Below the pieces are notes generated by a model. It was not told where the DNA came from. It made no database searches and saw only the letters and a program-made list of their open reading frames with translations. The position numbers and the translations under genes were made by a program. Of a DNA stretch of 64,000 nt, positions 3,996 through 53,000 are shown one piece after another; position 1 is the first letter of the stretch, and the number at the start of each line of letters is the position of its first letter. Source of the DNA: a virus (Duplodnaviria; Caudoviricetes); the IMG/VR virus record IMGVR_UViG_3300032030_002018. The stretch is one strand, 5' to 3'.

Positions 3996-4014
3996 TTAAT
4001 TTTCCTCCTTAATT

Positions 4015-4170
4015 TTATTTATACATTCCTTCAGGTGCTTCAATAGCAAATCCTTTCTCTTTGAGGTATTTAACATAATCTTCATAAGAAGAAAATTCAC
4101 TAGGAAAATATCCATAAGATAATCTACCACAACGGTCTTTTAACAATAAATCTTTTTCTTCTTGTTTCAT
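4015..4170 (-). CDS. Collapsed 51-aa F1 chimera (MKQEEKDLLLKD...EDYVKYLKEKGFAIEAPEGMYK)
   Basis: Manually translated; F1 N- and C-boxes with almost no middle. Confidence 0.6.
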   Translation of the reverse strand: MKQEEKDLLLKDRCGRLSYGYFPSEFSSYEDYVKYLKEKGFAIEAPEGMYK

Positions 4171-4199
4171 AACTTATTCAATTTTTTAATTTTACGTTA

Positions 4200-4396
4200 T
4201 AAATGTACACAATTTATTTGATATATATGATATGAAATATGTTAAAAAATATTAAAAAACCGTCCAAGAACCAATTATCACTGAACATATAATCGTTGTA
4301 GCACAAATTGCTGTCATAGTATTGTTATTTATACATTCCTTCTGGTGCTTCAATTGCAAGACCCTTTTCAATAAGTCCGTGATAATCAAGATGATG
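4200..4396. repeat. About 200-bp direct repeat copy 1 (F1 3' end + 21-aa micro-ORF + promoter); copy 2 at about 10339-10535
   Basis: Near-identical aaatgtacacaatttatttgatatatatgatatgaaatatgttaaaaaatattaaaaaaccgtccaagaaccaattatcactgaacatata. Confidence 0.85.
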
Positions 4397-4759
4397 TTTA
4401 TATAAATAGTTAAGTATATTATCCATATCTTCCACGGAACAAAATCCATCATCAGCAGCACCTACATATGCAAAATTGTCAAACTTACTAAAATTAAATT
4501 GCCAATTTATTTTTTGTAAATCTGAGATTTCTTCCTCAGTTATACTTGACATTGGACGGAGATATGGTTTAATATAGTTTGCATCTATACTGACGTGAAA
4601 TCTTCCATACCATCCATATTCAAATCTTGCAACATTTTTATCTATACAACCAAGAGTAATATCATCCTCTGCTGAACCATACTTGAAATGGCATTTCACT
4701 CCATAAGGCAATCTTGCACAAAGGTCTTTTAACAACAAATCTTTATCTTCTTGTGTCAT
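4325..4759 (-). CDS. Paralog family F1 (MTQEDKxLLLKDLCARLPYG...PYLRPMSSxTEEE...DYxGLIEKGLAIEAPEGMY)
   Basis: Seven full copies in window. Confidence 0.8.
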   Translation of the reverse strand: MTQEDKDLLLKDLCARLPYGVKCHFKYGSAEDDITLGCIDKNVARFEYGWYGRFHVSIDANYIKPYLRPMSSITEEEISDLQKINWQFNFSKFDNFAYVGAADDGFCSVEDMDNILNYLYKHHLDYHGLIEKGLAIEAPEGMYK

Positions 4760-4912
4760 AATCTTATTGGTTTATTTTTACACATAACCCATCTTTATCA
4801 AGAAATATCCGTTCTACTGAACAATAATTTTCTTCATTATCGTATATATTTATCAAACCTTCTTCATCTGCTTTTTCAAAAAGCCGTAATAATAACTCTT
4901 TTTCTTCTTGCG

Positions 4913-5794
4913 TCATAGTTTATTATATTCCTCAATTAAATCATTATATTTTTCTGGAACAGAATCAAAATCAATATCGTCCATCTTTTCTTTATAATGC
5001 AGGCAATCGAATAATGTTAGAACAGAATAATAAGTTTTTATTGTGTAATGTGTGTCGTTATTGTATATATATCCAAATCTTAATTCATCTTTTTTCCACA
5101 CTTTTTCTAACAATATATTGAAAACTTCATCCTTACTTTTCCCATATAATTCTGATAAATCAATACAGCCGTCTGTTGAGTTAATATCTGCCCAAATAAT
5201 TGGTTCTCCTGTAATGCAATCTGTTTCTATGATTAATTCATTATTATTAGGGTGTTTAAAATCGATTCTTACATTTGAATTACATTTTTGGTGTGTTGTA
5301 TCAAAAAATGAATCGTAATTTACATAATAATCATATTTTTCCAGTATTGGTATCAAGTTATTTGTTGCCCACTCCAGTTGCTCTTTTCTTCTTGACATTA
5401 TAAATAATTCGTGTTCAAGTAGATTTGTTTTTTGGAATTCAATGCACTTTTCAAATAAATCAAGGGTATGATGATTATATTCATTTGGTTCTGATACCAA
5501 TTGAATTTCTTTTGTTTCTCCTGTAAAAAAATCAGAAACGTTGCATATAGGGGATTCAATTCTTGCGTCTACGACTATATAATTATTATAGTCTACTTGA
5601 TATTCTGTTCCTGGTTCAAGAGTATCAAGATAATCTGATAGTTCCTTAGTTTCGACGACGTATAAGTTTATGTAAAACCCATTTTTAATAAAATCGACGA
5701 CTTCGAGACGTCCGTTCAAATATGTCTGTGATAAAGATGTTTCACAATACCCTTTACTAATCAAGAAATCGCCATATTCTTTTAATGTTCGCAT
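4913..5794 (-). CDS. Hypothetical protein
   Basis: Long ORF; ATG downstream of promoter at 5817-5824. Confidence 0.7.
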   Translation of the reverse strand: MRTLKEYGDFLISKGYCETSLSQTYLNGRLEVVDFIKNGFYINLYVVETKELSDYLDTLEPGTEYQVDYNNYIVVDARIESPICNVSDFFTGETKEIQLVSEPNEYNHHTLDLFEKCIEFQKTNLLEHELFIMSRRKEQLEWATNNLIPILEKYDYYVNYDSFFDTTHQKCNSNVRIDFKHPNNNELIIETDCITGEPIIWADINSTDGCIDLSELYGKSKDEVFNILLEKVWKKDELRFGYIYNNDTHYTIKTYYSVLTLFDCLHYKEKMDDIDFDSVPEKYNDLIEEYNKL

Positions 5795-38648: not shown

Positions 38649-38915
38649 CAGTATGTTAAAACTTGAACAAACTTGTCTGTCCATTATTAACTTCTTGCTT
38701 CAACCTACCACTGCTTTTTAGTGCCTCATCACTGAGTCTGTCATCCACAGTTGGATAGTCCACAAGCATAAATTCTGTAGTACTGCTACCTACTATTCTT
38801 AAACCTTCATCAAGTATGTTTAACGCTGCATTGTAGTCTCGCTCAATCACTTCACCACAAACAGGGCATAACCATTGTCTGTCACTCAACTTCAGTTCTT
38901 TATTGCTCTTAACAT
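38649..38915 (-). pseudogene. tnpB: IS607-type tnpB with large internal deletion, retaining the omegaRNA/right end (about 38649-38790)
   Basis: MLRAIK joined out of frame via AATAAAG microhomology to [27 protein letters not shown]. Confidence 0.8.
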
Positions 38916-38926
38916 AAATTTCCTAT

Positions 38927-39022
38927 TTAATCATCTTCTGTACACCACATACCACCAGGACAACTTGTGTCATTAAACGGACAGTCGGTACATTTATCTT
39001 TATTTTCTTCTTTGTTGTTCAT
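38927..39022 (-). CDS. 31-aa Cys-rich peptide (CTDCPFNDTSCPGGMWC)
   Basis: Manual translation; ATGA-coupled. Confidence 0.5.
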   Translation of the reverse strand: MNNKEENKDKCTDCPFNDTSCPGGMWCTEDD

Positions 39023-39300
39023 TTTCTTCTGTTAAATTCATCTATAATATTTTGTGACGGTTTGCCAACTGATGCCAAATACTTATAGTAAAGTTTTTTG
39101 CAAACAAATGGGTTTCCATTACAACCGTCTGTATCTTTATGCGACCAAGGAAGCATACATTCAGGATAGCCATTATCCCACCACTCACATTCGTTTCCAA
39201 ATTCAAAAAGCAATTTATTCGCCTTTCTATTAACAGATGTTCTTTGTTTATTTTTTCCCATCTTTCTTATTTTTTCTCCTTTCAGCACTTCTGCGTCCAT
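39019..39300 (-). CDS. Small Cys-containing protein (probable start MGKNKQ)
   Basis: ORF. Confidence 0.6.
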   Translation of the reverse strand: MDAEVLKGEKIRKMGKNKQRTSVNRKANKLLFEFGNECEWWDNGYPECMLPWSHKDTDGCNGNPFVCKKLYYKYLASVGKPSQNIIDEFNRRK

Positions 39301-39649
39301 AATACTTCCCTGAGAATGAAGCCAACAGTGACATCATATCAGCAGCCAATTCCTCAGTATCAGATACGTCCATACCATTTATCACAATTACCTCACACCC
39401 ATAACTCTCAAACATCTTCTTGATGAACTTGAATTGGAATCGTGTAAGTCTATCCTTATGTTCTATTACCAACTTATTGACCTTTTGTTTTATTATCAAG
39501 TCAGTCAGTTTAACAAAGCCACTTCTATTGTCATTCAAACCACTACCAACATCTTTTATTATATGTGTGACAAGCATTCCTTTCTTGGCGCAATACTCAG
39601 ATAGTCTCTGTGATTGTCTATCCAAATCACCTTTCTGTTTTTGCTCATC
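39248..39649 (-). pseudogene. tnpA: 5'-truncated IS607 serine-recombinase transposase
   Basis: EQKQKGDLDRQ, DVGSGLN, HKDRLTRF, EELAADMMSLLASFSGKYYGRRS; HTH and catalytic YARVS absent. Confidence 0.85.
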
Positions 39650-39752
39650 TTTCTTTCCAATAACCAGGTCTATGTCTATCAGCCTCCTTTAATACTTTAT
39701 TGGTGGCTTCTTGTACGATGTTATTTATTTCGTATTCTGTTATGGGTTTCAT
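39645..39752 (-). pseudogene. Truncated LxE-leader gene fused to the IS607 remnant
   Basis: MKPITEYEINNIVQEATNKVLKEADRHRPGYWKER*; ATATTTAT at 39772-39779. Confidence 0.6.
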
Positions 39753-40622: not shown

Positions 40623-41510
40623 TTATTTTTCGTTTTTATCTTCCTGAATCAATTCAAATGGTTCTTCCTTTGTTTCTTCAACTCTTTTCTGCGCAATATC
40701 ACAGTATCGTCTGTCAATATCAATTCCAATATAATGTCTGCCAGTCCTTTTTGCAACAGCACAGGTTGTTCCAACTCCATTGAATATATCCATCACAGTA
40801 TCTCCACGAAAGCTGAATAGTCTAAGGATTCTATCTGCAATTGCTTCTGGAAACATTGCAGGATGTCCCCATTCTTTCATATTCCTTTCACCAGGAATAT
40901 TCCATATATTGCTCTTTACCCATTCAGAGAACTCTAATTTCTGCATATCGTCAGAGTTGTATGGCTGTTTAAAATGCTTTATATCACCTTTTGAATATAT
41001 CTCAATAAATTCAACCATAGATTTCATATATGGACTTGAAGAACTCAAATAACTACCCCAACAGGAATAATGTACATTGCGATTATTCTTATTCCATATA
41101 ATCTCATTTCGCCATATCATTTTATTCTCAATCATCAATGATGTTATCATATGATGTGTTGGAATAAAATCACTCATCAATGGCATTGTGTTTATTGCGA
41201 TTCTACCACCATATTTCGTTACACGTATTACCTCTTTTAATATTGCGAATAATTGATTGAAATATTCCTCATTGGTGGATGTATCGTCATATTCACCATA
41301 TTCCTTGCCAAAATTATATGGTGGGGAAGTAAAGGTCAAATCAATGCAATTGTCAGGCAATGTTTTTAAAAACTCCAAACTATCTGCACATATAATAGCA
41401 TCATTTATTGGAGAATCATTGTTGACCTTTGAAAAGGTATTGCCATTGGCATAATAATGCAATACCCTTTTGTTCTTTCTCTTATTTATTATTTTCTTTG
41501 TTTCAGACAT
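40623..41510 (-). CDS. DNA N4-C/N6-A methyltransferase, beta class
   Basis: TSPPY, HPAMFP, DIFNGVGTT. Confidence 0.9.
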   Translation of the reverse strand: MSETKKIINKRKNKRVLHYYANGNTFSKVNNDSPINDAIICADSLEFLKTLPDNCIDLTFTSPPYNFGKEYGEYDDTSTNEEYFNQLFAILKEVIRVTKYGGRIAINTMPLMSDFIPTHHMITSLMIENKMIWRNEIIWNKNNRNVHYSCWGSYLSSSSPYMKSMVEFIEIYSKGDIKHFKQPYNSDDMQKLEFSEWVKSNIWNIPGERNMKEWGHPAMFPEAIADRILRLFSFRGDTVMDIFNGVGTTCAVAKRTGRHYIGIDIDRRYCDIAQKRVEETKEEPFELIQEDKNEK

Positions 41511-42134
41511 CTTTATATACCTTTATTTTTAAGGTCTTCTACAACATATAATAATATTTTTTTATTTTACCTAAGTTGTATATACCTTTATTTTTAAGGT
41601 CTTCTACAACATACTCCTACCTTTCTTTTCTGATTCTATGTTGTATATACCTTTATTTTTAAGGTCTTCTACAACATTATTGCAAAAGTCTGCTACGATT
41701 CATAGTTGTATATACCTTTATTTTTAAGGTCTTCTACAACATTTTCTAACTATCGAACCATAAGGCATCTGTTGTATATACCTTTATTTTTAAGGTCTTC
41801 TACAACACATTCGCTAACAAATCCTTTGACTTGGCAGTTGTATATACCTTTATTTTTAAGGTCTTCTACAACAGGGGGGGGATGTGTTGATGGTATGTGG
41901 TGTTGTATATACCTTTATTTTTAAGGTCTTCTACAACTTGGTGCTATGCTTTCAAGGATAAGTTTAAGTTGTATATACCTTTATTTTTAAGGTCTTCTAC
42001 AACTCATTTGGAGACATCCTTTTAGAACCTTCGTTGTATATACCTTTATTTTTAAGGTCTTCTACAACCACCAAGACATTATATAAATGGTGCAAAGAGT
42101 TGTATATACCTTTATTTTTAAGGTCTTCTACAAC
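41510..42134. CRISPR. CRISPR array: 10 x 36-nt repeats (+ strand GTTGTATATACCTTTATTTTTAAGGTCTTCTACAAC), 9 spacers of 29-30 nt
   Basis: Repeats start at 41510 (degenerate), 41575, 41640, 41705, 41771, 41837, 41902, 41968, 42033, 42099. Confidence 0.97.
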
Positions 42135-42182
42135 CTATGACGCATAACTCTTTATTTGTCAGTTGTTTATGACCATTTTTGT

Positions 42183-42336
42183 GATGTAAAAGACCATTAT
42201 TTTAAGGTCGTGGCATTCATTTTGCCACAGTTTTTCTGTTTCATTCTACCACTACTTTTTAGCGAATTGTTTCCAATTGGGTCATCCATAGTTGGGTAGT
42301 CCGCAGACTTAACATCCCCGATACACCTGGGTAGGG
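42183..42336 (-). ncRNA. IS607-type omegaRNA scaffold ending in an anti-repeat (tracrRNA-like)
   Basis: GCGGACTACCCAACTATGGATGAC...CTAAAAAGTAGTGGTAGAATGAAACA core shared with 38649-38790 and 46507-46652; GACCTTAAAA complementary to repeat. Confidence 0.75.
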
Positions 42337-42359: not shown

Positions 42360-43604
42360 TTATTTTGTTTCTGTCAGAATTCTATATCCTTCGTTCCTGA
42401 TATTTATCGCTGCATTTATATCCCTATCGTGTTCTATTCCGCATTGTGGGCATTTCCACATTCTTATTTTTAAGTTCTTTAATTCCTTGTTTTGATATCC
42501 ACAATTTGAGCATATCTGAGAACTTGGATAAAATCTGTCTATAACAGATAAGTTCTTTCCGTACCAATCACACTTATATGTAAGTTGTCGTCTCATTTCT
42601 CCCATATTGGCGTTTGTTATTGATTTTGCTATATGGTGATTTTTGACCATTCCCTTGACATTCAAATCCTCAATGCAAATAGTGTTGATGTTATCATTAT
42701 TCTTCGCCACATATGAAGTGATTTGGTGTGTATTGTAATTTCTTTTACCTGCTATTCTATTTTGTAATTTTGCAATCTTGTCTTTAAGTTTAATGTAATT
42801 TTTAGAAGGAACTTTAACCTCAACATCCTTGTTATACTTGTGTGAAAACACTGTCTCACCGGTTTTTATCCATTTTTTCTTGGATAGTTTTCTTTCAAGT
42901 TTTTTAAGTCTTTTTTCAAGTTTGGAATCCTTTTCATTCGTCGGAAATTTTGTGCCGTCAGACGTAATGGCATTTGAGTCTGTCTTAACACCCATATCAA
43001 TTCCAATAGATTTTTCTATTGATGGAGTTTCCTTTTCTTTTGCCTTAAAATCGTCATCGCATAGAATTGATATTTCATAGTAATCAAATGATTTCTTTGA
43101 AATAGTAAATTGGGTGATTCTACCCTGTATTTTTTTATGCAGTATAATTTTCACCCAATGAGGATGTCTTGGATTTTGTGGGTTAACAATTCTTACAAGA
43201 GATTTTTTGAAATTGAAAATCTTTTTGTTATCAGTTTCTTGTATTTGTATTGCAAATGAATTTCCGTATTTTTTACTTTTAAACCTAGGTTCATCCGCAA
43301 GTTTTTTAAACCATCTATCAAAAGCAGAATCAAGGTTTGACGCTGTATATATATAAGATATAGCTGGTGCTACCTTTAAAAATTCTGTATCTTGATTTCT
43401 TTTCAATACAGGAAGGTCTCTTGACACATCATATTGTGCGCTTAAGTGTTTTTTAGCTGTATCATTGTCTTTGTTTTCTTGATAATGTTTTTTTATTTTC
43501 TCTAAACAGTAATTCCACCACCAAACATTTGACTTAAAACATTTGTCAAAATATTCTTTTTGTTCATCGTTAGGATATATCCTGTATTTATATGCTCTTT
43601 TCAT
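42360..43604 (-). CDS. tnpB: CRISPR-adjacent TnpB/Cas12f-like RNA-guided nuclease (414 aa)
   Basis: AYKYRIYP N-terminus; RuvC-I GIDMG, RuvC-II IEDL, Zn finger CSNC/CPQC, RuvC-III DRDINAAINI. Confidence 0.9.
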   Translation of the reverse strand: MKRAYKYRIYPNDEQKEYFDKCFKSNVWWWNYCLEKIKKHYQENKDNDTAKKHLSAQYDVSRDLPVLKRNQDTEFLKVAPAISYIYTASNLDSAFDRWFKKLADEPRFKSKKYGNSFAIQIQETDNKKIFNFKKSLVRIVNPQNPRHPHWVKIILHKKIQGRITQFTISKKSFDYYEISILCDDDFKAKEKETPSIEKSIGIDMGVKTDSNAITSDGTKFPTNEKDSKLEKRLKKLERKLSKKKWIKTGETVFSHKYNKDVEVKVPSKNYIKLKDKIAKLQNRIAGKRNYNTHQITSYVAKNNDNINTICIEDLNVKGMVKNHHIAKSITNANMGEMRRQLTYKCDWYGKNLSVIDRFYPSSQICSNCGYQNKELKNLKIRMWKCPQCGIEHDRDINAAINIRNEGYRILTETK

Positions 43605-46233: not shown

Positions 46234-46347
46234 AGGTATCTATAAAACAACTGGAGTTGCAGGATTCGAACCTACGTATCATCATTATTAGTGACGCATC
46301 TTAACCTCTTGATTAAACTTCACGTTTTAGATTGCTGTAAGATACCT
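46234..46347 (-). ncRNA. ACAGCAA-motif stem RNA 3 enclosing a tRNA-like fold (46251-46322, anticodon AAT)
   Basis: AGGTATCT-TACAGCAAT...cloverleaf...AGATACCT. Confidence 0.65.
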
Positions 46348-46506: not shown

Positions 46507-46652
46507 CTGTACGCTAAATTCTGAACAAACTTGTCTGTTCATTATTAACTTCTTGTTTCATCCTACCACTACTTTTTAGTACCTCATAGCTGAGTGTGTC
46601 ATCCATAGGAGGGCAGTCCGCAAGCGTAAATTCGGGTGTACAGCACCCTACG
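46507..46652 (-). ncRNA. Stand-alone IS607-type omegaRNA scaffold without tnpB
   Basis: Homologous to 38649-38790; own promoter at 46688-46719. Confidence 0.75.
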
Positions 46653-46687
46653 TTTAATAGATAAATACTCATTTTTTATTTACAATG

Positions 46688-46719
46688 CAAATGTACACTA
46701 TTTATTTGTAAAAAACAAA
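46688..46719 (-). promoter_or_regulatory. Bacteroidota-type promoter
   Basis: TTTG-N20-TACATTTG. Confidence 0.8.
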
Positions 46720-48852: not shown

Positions 48853-50052
48853 CTACCCACAAACTAAAGATTTGTGGGCTTCTGACTTCATTGCTGACTG
48901 CCATTGAAATGGTCTTACATCTGCTCCATCAGTGTAATCGACAGTTCCTGCCGATATATTTCTTAATCCTTCTGCAAGGATATTCATTGCTGCATTAACA
49001 TCTCTGTCAAGAACTTCTCCACAATTTGGACAAGTCCATTCCCTATCTTTCAACGATAAGTCTTCTTTAACCCAACTACAACAATGGCAAGTCTTTGAAG
49101 ATGGGTAGTATCTACCTATCTTCACTACTTTCTTATTGTTCATAACTGCCTTGTAAGTAAGCATTGAAAGGAATGCTCCCCAACTTGCATCAGATATACT
49201 CTGAGCAAGTCTATGGTTTCTTTGCATACCCTTTACATTCAAGTCCTCACAACAAATTACATCATAATTCCTGATTAAGTCGGTGCTAATCTTATGTAAT
49301 TTGTCAAACCTACAGTTATGAATTTTCTCTTGTATTCTCGCAACCTTAATTCTTTGTCTGTTCCAAGAATTACTACCTTTCTGCTTTCTTGACAAATGTT
49401 TCTGCGATTTTGCAAGCTCTTTTGAATAACGCTTGATGAATTTGTTACTTGAATATCTCTTACCATCACTTGTGACTACCAAGTCTTTTAACCCCAAGTC
49501 TATACCAACCTTTGCATTGGTTTTCTGCAACGGTTCATATATAACTTGAGTAAGTATGGAAACATAATATTTTCCGCTCGGTGTAACAGAGATTGTCATA
49601 TTTCTGACATCGCCACCTTTGAATGGTCTATACTCCACTATCTTAATCCCATCTTTGAACTTTGGAATATATATCCTACCATTCTCAACAGAACAATGCT
49701 GTGGTATACGAAAACTTCCGCCATTTTTCTTTGCCTTGAATCTTGGAAACCTTGCATTACCACTAAAAAAATTAGTATATGCCGTTTCAAGATTTCTCAG
49801 TGCGAATTGAAGTGTCTGTGAATTGATTTCCTTTAACCACAAGTATTCTTCTTGTCTTTTTAGTTTGGTAAGTGCGCTTGCTTGTACATAGTAATTGTCA
49901 CTTTTACCATTATCAGTGTATTGCTGTTTTCTTTCAGCAAGAAAATGATTATAGACAAAACGTACAGACCCAAAATACCTTGCAAGTATTTGCTCTTGCT
50001 CCTTATTTGGGCACATTCTGTACTTATATGTCTTTAAAATCACTTTCATCAT
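48853..50052 (-). CDS. tnpB: IS605-family TnpB
   Basis: GIDLG, CEDL, CHCC/CPNC, DRDVNAAMNI. Confidence 0.93.
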   Translation of the reverse strand: MMKVILKTYKYRMCPNKEQEQILARYFGSVRFVYNHFLAERKQQYTDNGKSDNYYVQASALTKLKRQEEYLWLKEINSQTLQFALRNLETAYTNFFSGNARFPRFKAKKNGGSFRIPQHCSVENGRIYIPKFKDGIKIVEYRPFKGGDVRNMTISVTPSGKYYVSILTQVIYEPLQKTNAKVGIDLGLKDLVVTSDGKRYSSNKFIKRYSKELAKSQKHLSRKQKGSNSWNRQRIKVARIQEKIHNCRFDKLHKISTDLIRNYDVICCEDLNVKGMQRNHRLAQSISDASWGAFLSMLTYKAVMNNKKVVKIGRYYPSSKTCHCCSWVKEDLSLKDREWTCPNCGEVLDRDVNAAMNILAEGLRNISAGTVDYTDGADVRPFQWQSAMKSEAHKSLVCG

Positions 50053-50143
50053 TTAAAATATAGTTAAAAACTATCTCTTTTCAATAATAAATATTAGATA
50101 ATTTACAAAAAGTTCCTATTTTTTGTAAAAAATATTTTTTATT

Positions 50144-50242
50144 ATGAGTTATTTTTCTAAAAATTGGTCTAACGGATATTTTGTATGCTCCATTAGTGAA
50201 GCAAATCCTGATACTATTAGAAAGTACATTGAGAATTAAGGT
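50144..50242 (+). pseudogene. tnpA: Internally deleted tnpA remnant
   Basis: 5' ATGAGTTATTTTTCTAA joined to W.NGYFVCSISEANPDTIRKYIEN. Confidence 0.8.
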
Positions 50243-50299
50243 TTATGCAATTCATCCCATTAACTAAAGATTAATGGGTTTTCTTGCATTATTTATATA

Positions 50300-50343
50300 A
50301 AAAATAAAAGCTGCTGAAACTTTTTTGGAGGTATCAACAGCTT
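50300..50343 (-). terminator. Terminator or attenuator hairpin after short leader ORF
   Basis: AAGCTGTTGA...TCAGCAGCTT-TTATTTTT. Confidence 0.6.
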
Positions 50344-50375
50344 GGGAAATATATAGTTAAGTAAGTGCGCCAATT

Positions 50376-50495
50376 TTACATCATATATTTTTCAAACTGT
50401 TTTAACCTTTTATTATTGGTATACGCCGGTGTATCACATTCTTGAATTGAATGTGAAAGACAAATGGATGGATATTTCTGACTAAAATTTTTCAT
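50376..50495 (-). CDS. 39-aa putative leader peptide
   Basis: Manual translation MKNFSQKYPSICLSHS...KYMM; ATATTTAT at 50524-50531. Confidence 0.4.
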   Translation of the reverse strand: MKNFSQKYPSICLSHSIQECDTPAYTNNKRLKQFEKYMM

Positions 50496-51054
50496 TATAT
50501 GTTTAAGGTGATAATTTCTTTTTATAAATATATATAAATTTTTGAAAAAAACAAAATTTTTGAAAATATTTTTTAAAAAGTTTCCATAAAATTCACCAAA
50601 TCAATATAATTTTGTTCAGCGACAAAACTAACAATAGTTGATATTGCCTTTTTTATTCTTTCTGCATTTTCAGTATAACATTCCTCGTATGGCTTATATG
50701 GTGTCAGTCTATCGTGTTGTTTTGGTCTATTGGAATAATATTCGGAAACAGTTTTAAAATGATTTTTAATAGCACTATAATCTTGATTTAACACTTCTAC
50801 AACAGCTTCGTTTAAACAATTTAGTCTAAACTCTACCTTGTTTTTACTAAGTGGGTCTATATCTATATCCACAAACCTCTTACAAAGGGCAGGTACTCTC
50901 TCTCTCCAATGATTAACGACTTGACTGTCTGGATAAAGACACAAACATACTAAATTGTCTACAATAGCATCTAAAACCTCACCGAATTTATCAGTCATTT
51001 TATATTTTCTATGCAAGAAAACCCATTAATCTTTAGTTAATGGGATGAATTGCA

Positions 51055-51453
51055 TCAGCCTTGATTCTCAATATACTTTCTAATAGTATCAGGATTCGCT
51101 TCACCAATAGAACATACAAAATATCCATCAGACCAAAAAGTATGTTCCTTCCAAAAATGTTTTCTTAGTATTGGTTGGAACTCTTTCCAAAGTCTGTTTG
51201 TACTTACTTGTTTCAATACTCTGACAATTGAAGTAACTGTAATATTTGGCGGATAACTAATAAGAAGATGTATATGGTCTTTGTCCGTTTCCATTATCTC
51301 AATATCAAAGTCACATCTACTTTCTACTTCCTTAAATACTAAAAGAACACATTCTCTAATTTCAGAAACAAGTAGTTGTTTCCTGTACTTACAGACAAAT
51401 ATTAAGTGACATTTCAAGTAAAACTTGTGTCTATTATTAGAAAAATAACTCAT
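51055..51453 (-). CDS. tnpA: Y1 (HUH) transposase
   Basis: DHIHLL, FWSDGYF, YIENQ. Confidence 0.93.
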   Translation of the reverse strand: MSYFSNNRHKFYLKCHLIFVCKYRKQLLVSEIRECVLLVFKEVESRCDFDIEIMETDKDHIHLLISYPPNITVTSIVRVLKQVSTNRLWKEFQPILRKHFWKEHTFWSDGYFVCSIGEANPDTIRKYIENQG

Positions 51454-51560
51454 ATCAAAATATTTTTTTTACAAAAATAGTAACTTTTTGTAAATTATTT
51501 GATATTTATTATTGAAAAGAGATAGTTTTTAACTATATTTTAAACGTAAACGTAAAGAAT

Positions 51561-51785
51561 ATGGAAGTTATTAAAGGAATAAGTCTAAACGATGTACAAA
51601 AAGCAAAAGATACTTTGATAGAAGATGCAGAGATAATGAAGGCACTAAGAGATAGACTTAAAGAACAAGATGTTCCACTGCAAGAACAGAATGACATAAG
51701 GAAAAAGGTGATAGATATTCTTTCAAAGGATTTGTTGATAACAATGAATCTGTCAAGTTGCGCTGATATTATAAATGTTTGGTAA
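51561..51785 (+). CDS. Passenger ORF inside IS605
   Basis: 74 aa, absent from the other copy. Confidence 0.6.
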   Translation: MEVIKGISLNDVQKAKDTLIEDAEIMKALRDRLKEQDVPLQEQNDIRKKVIDILSKDLLITMNLSSCADIINVW

Positions 51786-51803
51786 ATAAGTAAAGATAAT
51801 TAT

Positions 51804-53000
51804 ATGAAAGTGATTTTAAAGACATATAAGTACAGAATGTACCCAAATAAGGAGCAAGAGCAAATGCTTGCAAAGTATTTTGGGTCCGTACGTTTTGTCT
51901 ATAATCATTTTCTTGCCGAAAGAAAACAACAATACACTGAGAATGGAAAAAGTGATAACTATTATGCACAAGCAAGCACACTTACCAAACTAAAAAAACA
52001 AGAAGAATACTTGTGGCTAAAGGAAATCAATTCGCAAACACTTCAATTCGCACTTAGAAATCTTGAAACTGCATATACTAATTTCTTTAGGGGTAATGCA
52101 AGATTTCCAAGATTCAAGGCAAAGAAAAATGGTGGGAGTTTCCATATACCACAACATTGTTCTGTGGAGAATAGTAGAATTTACATACCAAAGTTCAAAG
52201 ATGGAATTAAAATAGTAGAACACAGACCATTCAAAGGCGGAGATGTCAGAAATATGACAATCTCTGTCACACCAAGCGGAAAATATTATGTTTCCATACT
52301 TACACAAGTTACATACGAGCCTTTACAGAAAACCAATGCAAAGGTTGGTATAGACTTGGGGTTGAAAGACTTGGTAATCACAAGTGATGGTAAAAAGTAT
52401 TCAAGCAATAAGTTCATTAAGCGTTATTCAAAAGAACTTGCAAAAGCACAGAAACACTTGTCAAGAAAGCAGAAAGGTAGCAATTCTTGGAACAGACAAA
52501 GAATTAAGGTTGCAAGAATACAAGAGAAAATTCACAATTGTAGATTTGATAAGTTACATAAAATTAGTACTGACTTAATCAGGAACTATGATGTAATTTG
52601 TTGTGAGGACTTGAATGTTAAAGGTATGCAAAGAAACCATAGACTTGCTCAGTCAATATTAGATGCAAGTTGGGGAGCATTCCTTTCAATGCTTACTTAC
52701 AAGGCAGTTATGAATGATAAACAAGTAGTGAAGATAGGTAGATACTACCCATCTTCAAAAACTTGTCATCATTGTGGTTGGGTTAAAGAAGACTTATCGT
52801 TGAAAGATAGGGAATGGACTTGTCCAAATTGTGGAGAAGTTCTTGACAGAGATGTTAATGCAGCAATGAATATCCTTGCAGAAGGATTAAGAAATATATC
52901 GGCAGGAACTGTCGATTACACTGATGGAGCAGATGTAAGACCCTTTCAAGGGCAATCAGCAAAGAAGTCAGAAGCCCACAAATCTTTAGTTTGTGGGTAG
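51804..53000 (+). CDS. tnpB: IS605-family TnpB, close paralog of 48853..50052
   Basis: RuvC D/E/D and Zn finger. Confidence 0.93.
   Translation: MKVILKTYKYRMYPNKEQEQMLAKYFGSVRFVYNHFLAERKQQYTENGKSDNYYAQASTLTKLKKQEEYLWLKEINSQTLQFALRNLETAYTNFFRGNARFPRFKAKKNGGSFHIPQHCSVENSRIYIPKFKDGIKIVEHRPFKGGDVRNMTISVTPSGKYYVSILTQVTYEPLQKTNAKVGIDLGLKDLVITSDGKKYSSNKFIKRYSKELAKAQKHLSRKQKGSNSWNRQRIKVARIQEKIHNCRFDKLHKISTDLIRNYDVICCEDLNVKGMQRNHRLAQSILDASWGAFLSMLTYKAVMNDKQVVKIGRYYPSSKTCHHCGWVKEDLSLKDREWTCPNCGEVLDRDVNAAMNILAEGLRNISAGTVDYTDGADVRPFQGQSAKKSEAHKSLVCG

Follow-up and report, generated by a model that had tools for sequence, protein, structure and literature searches.

The locus lies in a window of 64,000 nucleotides, the whole stretch of DNA analysed here, which corresponds to positions 265184-329183 of the 334,687-base (~335-kb) record of a giant phage. 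A tRNA cluster is located inside the window, and the window's open reading frames are readable under table 11, an alternative genetic code being unnecessary. On the minus strand, a 149-aa ORF is followed by a gene for a 414-aa TnpB, a scaffold RNA, 48 nt and then a CRISPR array. A DNA methyltransferase gene is found directly after the array (window 40623-41510), as it is in the related loci L186, L188 and L189, there on the opposite strand. The features considered below are as follows.

42360 to 43604, minus strand: tnpB-type effector gene, 414 aa, RuvC D-E-D and zinc finger intact
42183 to 42336, minus strand: putative omegaRNA-derived tracrRNA, minimum extent with inferred ends
42317 to 42331, minus strand: 5' (nexus) hairpin, loop GTGTA at 42322-42326
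42204 to 42208, minus strand: ACCTT, 5' strand of the terminal stem, with its partner AAGGT in the same-strand repeat
42183 to 42195, minus strand: anti-repeat to nt 1-13 of the same-strand repeat, ending in TACATC
42162 to 42174, minus strand: probable second anti-repeat-like copy, more degenerate, judged from sequence
42145 to 42157, minus strand: IHF-consensus-like leader motif, 7/9 positions matching
41510 to 42134, minus strand: CRISPR array of nine exact 36-nt repeats and one degenerate leader-distal repeat, with nine spacers
38649 to 38793, minus strand: comparison copy, unsplit omegaRNA from an IS607 element with an internal deletion
46507 to 46651, minus strand: stand-alone unsplit omegaRNA of the same type, comparison copy without transposase or tnpB ORF

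The 414-aa protein matches the guided_TnpB profile with 268 bits (cut-off 100), and the best structural match of its model is ISDra2 TnpB (Z 30.2, rmsd 2.8, 330 aligned). The RuvC residues D203, E312 and D395 show no variation among 53 relatives. A clade-specific beta-hairpin is inserted at about residues 245-266, and the protein stops 19 aa past D395, the model being confident up to the terminus. PADLOC models for Cas12u4 (1e-51) and Cas12f (2e-49) match it, and it scores 33 bits for Cas12f2 and 70 bits for C2c8, below the NCBIfam cut-offs of 450 and 350 bits, respectively. No tnpA adjoins the gene, and the scaffold begins 23 nt beyond its stop codon. Together with a 385-aa sister group, ~85 protein clusters at 43-61% identity form one clade (FastTree support 99) of about 100 protein clusters of 385-433 aa, in which the long contigs are jumbo phages. 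In some 20 distinct loci of this one TnpB clade the scaffold recurs with an array behind it in the same orientation, the repeats being 36 nt long here and in all relatives. Every distinct locus fetched shows this layout, including the deep branches L160, L199 and L246, and arrays were found at 0/123 other TnpBs.

The nine spacers of the window array are all different and 29-30 nt long, and the degenerate repeat (41510-41545) is located at the far end from the scaffold. The leader motif, a match to what we take to be the IHF consensus (WATCARnnnnTTR), ends precisely 10 nt before repeat 1, and over 19 loci the score at this offset averages 7.16/9 vs 2.2-4.1 elsewhere. Neither a cas1 gene nor an HU/IHF gene was found when the phage genome was searched. 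No spacer target was identified in INPHARED phages, in the phage's own genome, in all fetched loci or in five related phage records, and an exact search of IMG/VR with two spacers gave no target. An identical protein is accompanied by differing arrays in L016 and L018, which is consistent with array turnover. Within each of the arrays of L001, L186, L198 and L016 the 5' ends of the repeats are unusually variable and the 3' end is constant, and several arrays among these have short spacers of 15-21 nt.

The first-pass annotation had described three homologous scaffolds in the window and had interpreted the one beside the array as an omegaRNA turned tracrRNA, the loop of which is read by the 3' end of the CRISPR repeat. 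Scaffold comparison bears out the homology, and none of the scaffolds belongs to an Rfam family at the gathering threshold or at E<=5. All on the minus strand, the motifs TACTG (38649-38653), TACAG (46507-46511), TACATC (42183-42188) and GACCTTAAAA (42200-42209) stand letter for letter at the given positions, and the match between 42183-42195 and the repeat is likewise confirmed at 11/13. The letters GGTGTA (42322-42327), given as the loop, are present, although the first G closes the stem and the loop itself is the 5-mer GTGTA. The stem of this nexus hairpin has two-sided changes at 4/5 pairs across the relatives.

The anti-repeat at 42183-42195 forms 11 contiguous pairs, including one G-U, together with one U.U mismatch and one terminal pair (pairing z -4.3, pair probability 0.76 across most of the helix). 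The tandem arrangement with a second anti-repeat is also seen in L205. ACCTT, the equivalent of the last omegaRNA stem in IS605 elements, pairs with AAGGT of repeat 1, near the repeat 3' end, at a probability of 0.6-0.75, and the terminal TACAAC is left free for the pseudoknot. At the position of GACCTTAAAA the relatives carry a conserved ACC and then the arm of an A-rich hairpin, which is missing in the window copy and also in L022, L023 and L205.

The pseudoknot itself is complete in all 17 loci compared, the loop TGTA pairing with TACA, which in the same-strand repeat precedes the final AC (68/68 cells). Compensatory changes occur at 2/4 pairs, a count that rests on two independent changes only: L022 combines a loop GTGCA with the repeat end TGCAAC (TGCA/TGCA), and L205 a loop GTGTC with the repeat end GGCAAC, the next repeat ending in GACAAC (TGTC/GGCA). 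This pairing upholds the proposal that the loop of a former omegaRNA is read by the repeat 3' end. On the strength of these comparisons, 42183-42336 is very likely the established, omegaRNA-derived tracrRNA of a minimal type V system of TranC type that the phage encodes.

The strand of the array needs separate consideration, as the annotation had paired the scaffold in trans with the plus-strand repeat and had taken GACCTTAAAA for an anti-repeat. In the window copy alone the two orientations are nearly equal, with duplex energies of -20.5 for the same-strand repeat and -19.8 for the plus-strand repeat, and binding of -5.4 vs -4.7 kcal/mol. The quasi-palindromic repeat makes them pair alike, and this led the annotation astray on strand. 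The near-equality lends something to a plus-strand transcript in which GACCTTAAAA would be the anti-repeat, a reading that is nevertheless very unlikely in view of the relatives. Over 17 loci the repeat middles are strongly divergent, the same-strand 3' end CAAC is invariant and the opposite-strand end is variable, and use of the latter breaks the pseudoknot in L022, L023, L199 and L205. The same-strand duplex averages -19.0 kcal/mol for cognate vs -13.4 for non-cognate repeats, compared to -14.2 vs -12.4 kcal/mol for the antisense duplex; the cognate repeat ranks 1-4 of 17 in 15 loci, and same-strand binding is the better one in 14/17, some individual anti-repeats being short and several without significance alone. 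The leader motif and the degenerate repeat likewise indicate minus polarity. The array and scaffold are read on the minus strand, a polarity drawn from the relatives and the leader, because the comparison of repeat ends and duplexes, the phased leader motif and the distal degenerate repeat all agree. As the complement of the plus-strand repeat, GACCTTAAAA is identical to, and in the same sense as, the minus-strand repeat; it is rejected as an anti-repeat, the real one being 42183-42195.

The annotation had further supposed that the RNA can fold as a single omegaRNA with its own cis guide. When the scaffold is folded without a repeat, a GACC/GGTC hairpin forms with a probability of ~1.0, and TACATC can become the partner of the loop in a cis pseudoknot, in the same register (TACA plus 2 nt) as in the repeat. 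The co-fold that the annotation had proposed favors the duplex once repeat 1 is on the same transcript (0.76), the hairpin keeping 0.24. The scaffold might accordingly also close on itself, the leader serving as a fixed guide, or rest in this state until invaded by a crRNA. This dual use is unlikely, as the cis pairing is not conserved: across the relatives, pairing of the cis-partner column with the loop is at 60%, equal to shuffles, with zero two-sided changes, and stem and partner occur together at the place of TACATC in the window locus only. Nowhere else in the genome is there a site for the would-be guide, whose first 10-14 nt occur at the window locus only. Moreover, the repeats start with G(T/A/G)TGTA and end in TACAAC, so that an anti-repeat which reaches the repeat start must resemble the repeat end, and the cis match is an automatic consequence of palindromic repeat ends. 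From this comparison TACATC is the terminus of the anti-repeat mimicking the repeat end, and its candidacy as a conserved cis omegaRNA end is rejected. A dual mode is physically possible in the window copy, without evolutionary support. That the lost extra hairpin and the palindromic repeat here let one RNA act both as tracrRNA and as self-closed omegaRNA (a fixed guide or a self-inhibited store), in a lineage outside the published TranC clades, is quite unlikely.

It may also be asked whether the scaffold, the 48-nt leader, repeat 1 and spacer 1 function solely as one long cis omegaRNA, that is, as a natural fused guide, with the later repeats a passive archive until used or lost. The co-oriented transcript does fold with the anti-repeat on repeat 1, and the distance from scaffold to first repeat is near-constant (185-207 nt in 16/17 loci). 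The phased leader, however, also accounts for this constancy, and all nine full repeats are free of changes, which would be expected were each of them in use. In L019/L020, the scaffold and a two-repeat array (596-900) are situated 3.4 kb upstream of the nuclease gene (4001-5203), behind which there is no scaffold, so the parts can act apart. A purely fused guide is for these reasons unlikely.

The window repeat has both ends, with a different middle, in common with Prevotella Cas13b repeats (22-24.5/36), and its ends are shared with an unrelated phage Cas12f-like array as well. A chance neighbourhood, in which a solo TnpB element happens to lie next to an array serving a host Cas13b or Cas9, could be read from this likeness, but is extremely unlikely and was rejected, as linkage, anti-repeat and pseudoknot covary across ~20 loci with quite different repeats. 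Spacers in Prevotella Cas13b arrays are mostly 32-36 nt long, and the phased motif is absent there. A type VI-B array would differ from the present one in its repeat middle and in its neighbour, which here is TnpB instead of cas13b. Very similar repeats are also seen in L245 (1-1724), beside an unrelated 476-aa Cas12f-like phage protein, and in L243 (3700-4010), where an array with an anti-repeat is present without a nuclease in the locus.

Since all examined members of the clade, basal ones included, possess a tracrRNA-type scaffold and an array, the split of the omegaRNA is, judging from these loci, older than the diversification of the clade, and the window copy is not a fresh event. The window RNA had been called an intermediate of RNA splitting, which holds in the sense in which TranC systems are intermediates, but not for an RNA caught in the act of switching. 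The scaffold of the deep-branching 424-aa member L160 (4290-4560) contains a long core insertion, while its 5' hairpin, phased leader and repeat end are kept.

The unsplit copies illuminate the ancestry of the scaffold. The 5-bp covariation between loop and 3' end noted in the two copies described as IS607-type is real, and a third type, CCGTA/TACGG, occurs in L171 and elsewhere in the phage genome. The IS607 label fits the copy at 38649, which lies in a remnant (window 38649-39692, minus strand) with a tnpA lacking its N-terminal part, a tnpB reduced to the last ~56 codons and an intact omegaRNA, but the copy at 46507 has no transposase or tnpB ORF beside it. A scaffold near-identical to that of the remnant is present in L322. 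The stand-alone omegaRNA (46507-46700, minus strand) has a Bacteroidetes-type promoter to itself (-7 box near 46695) and ends 3 nt before a tRNA-Gly; its guide would be the 5' end of the tRNA, or be removed by RNase P to leave a guide-less scaffold, a possible decoy for TnpB. Extra scaffolds without an upstream tnpB are also found in L171 and L322.

The CCCTACC 5' hairpin of the tracrRNA recurs in IS605-type elements that carry a Y1 tnpA (L027, L063) and in many relatives (L052, L250, L254), and over the first 34 nt identity to the tracrRNA is 67-72% for the IS605-type vs 50% for the IS607-type copies. The IS605 omegaRNAs finish with stem-A-GTTC-AC or stem-A-GCTC-AC, and their loops, GAAC/GAGC, covary with these ends to give a 4-bp pseudoknot, after which comes a terminal AC. 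The end GGT-A-GTTC-AC is in the same register as GGT-ATA-TACA-AC of the repeat. The repeats of L199 and L019 end in GGTAGTTACAAC, which differs from the IS605 end GGTAGTTCAC by two insertions. In its ends the scaffold is closer to IS605 omegaRNAs than to the IS607-type copies, and a probable IS605 ancestry is drawn from RNA ends only, because the protein trees, unrooted FastTree reconstructions, do not settle the sister group of the clade. By eye, the central core is at least as similar to the IS607-type copies of the phage, and the RNA may be a mosaic of IS605- and IS607-like parts. As to the repeat, its ends are common to Prevotella Cas13b and phage Cas12f-like arrays, so that capture of a host-type repeat and convergence under host Cas1-Cas2 are inseparable from direct descent from an omegaRNA end.

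RNA splitting in TranC systems derived from IS605 and IS607 TnpBs has been described by Jin et al. (Cell 2025, pmid 41027434), as relayed in PMC13565253 and PMC13639567. Repeated association of TnpB with CRISPR (PMC10691335), including landfill viruses (PMC12607003), and a nexus pseudoknot common to TnpB and Cas12 guides (10.1101/2023.11.20.567912) have also been reported. Like TranC, the window system combines a TnpB-sized nuclease adjoining a CRISPR array with a reRNA/omegaRNA split into tracrRNA and crRNA, without adaptation genes; the RuvC site is intact, the array linkage is clade-wide and the derivation of the tracrRNA from a reRNA is computational. LaTranC (PDB 9jfo/9jfq, 478 aa) is distant, its profile matching the window TnpB only over positions 180-395, and the latter is closer to ISDra2 TnpB (272 vs 177 bits; Z 30.2 vs 21.5). 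CauTranC9, an active 414-aa phage TranC (bioRxiv 10.64898/2026.03.27.714800), and TranC clade 9 are similar when compared by description: 414 aa on average, a Caudoviricetes genome, a TnpB-like fold and no REC/WED expansion. Its reported array has five repeats of 38 bp vs ten of 36 bp here, automated repeat calls being able to vary by 2 bp, and the clade 9 report (bioRxiv 10.64898/2026.03.27.714800) contains no tracrRNA structure.

Compared to IS200/IS605 TnpB-omegaRNA systems (ISDra2; L027, L063, L052, L250), the window system has the same protein fold (Z 30), 5' hairpin, three-stem scaffold and 4-bp pseudoknot followed by a terminal AC, but its last stem-loop stands open until the repeat completes it, and its guides come from spacers. 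In contrast to a mobile IS200/IS605 or IS607 element, there is no adjacent tnpA or transposon right end, and the cis end is not conserved. The IS607-type omegaRNAs of the phage (38649, 46507 and G000 at 231.6 kb) have a central core very similar, by eye, to the tracrRNA, but differ in their 5' hairpin (50% over 34 nt), in a 5-bp pseudoknot that runs up to the very end and in the absence of an anti-repeat. A tracrRNA with an anti-repeat and a pseudoknot to the crRNA is also known from Cas12f and Cas12n (V-U4). Cas12n, however, is ~540 aa long with an unstructured C-terminal tail overlapping the tracrRNA, whereas the window protein has no long tail and its tracrRNA follows the stop codon.

These features suggest the following mode of action. 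Comparison shows that the scaffold retains the 5' hairpin and core of the omegaRNA, whose last stem-loop is opened: ACCTT, its 5' strand, remains on the tracrRNA together with the anti-repeat, and each repeat contributes AAGGT as the 3' strand, TACA for the pseudoknot and the final AC, with the spacer behind them as the guide. Pairing of tracrRNA and crRNA rebuilds the omegaRNA fold. Transcription would proceed from upstream Bacteroidetes-type promoters, host RNases may trim the tracrRNA:crRNA duplex, and TnpB would cut DNA matching the spacer beside a 5' TAM/PAM, the targets probably being competing phages or other mobile elements. Since cas1 and HU/IHF genes are both missing from the phage, spacers would be gained at the leader end by Cas1-Cas2 and an IHF-like protein of the host.

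The promoter-like motif TTTG...TACATTTG occurs in ten copies in the window, 10/10 on the minus strand. We take this motif to be the Bacteroidetes sigma-A consensus, and the host is therefore probably a member of the Bacteroidales, gut bacteria. A sigma-70 promoter scan gave chance level only. ARAGORN also calls a tRNA-Ile with anticodon AAT (window 46251-46322, minus strand), which is unusual for bacteria and their phages. At window 48853-53000, two near-identical, inverted IS605-type tnpB genes flank a Y1 tnpA (51055-51453) and a tnpA fragment; the inverted repeats there are long, at 197, 139 and 91 nt.

The splitting of an omegaRNA into tracrRNA and crRNA is already published, and no new principle is involved here. 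The clade is useful in being large, in comprising some of the smallest CRISPR-linked nucleases and in having close unsplit IS605 omegaRNA relatives. The split point can be located to the base, nature provides compensatory variants (L022, L205), and the arrangement offers a ready single-guide design. Finally, the phased host-factor motif makes spacer gain by the arrays of phages without cas1 directly testable.
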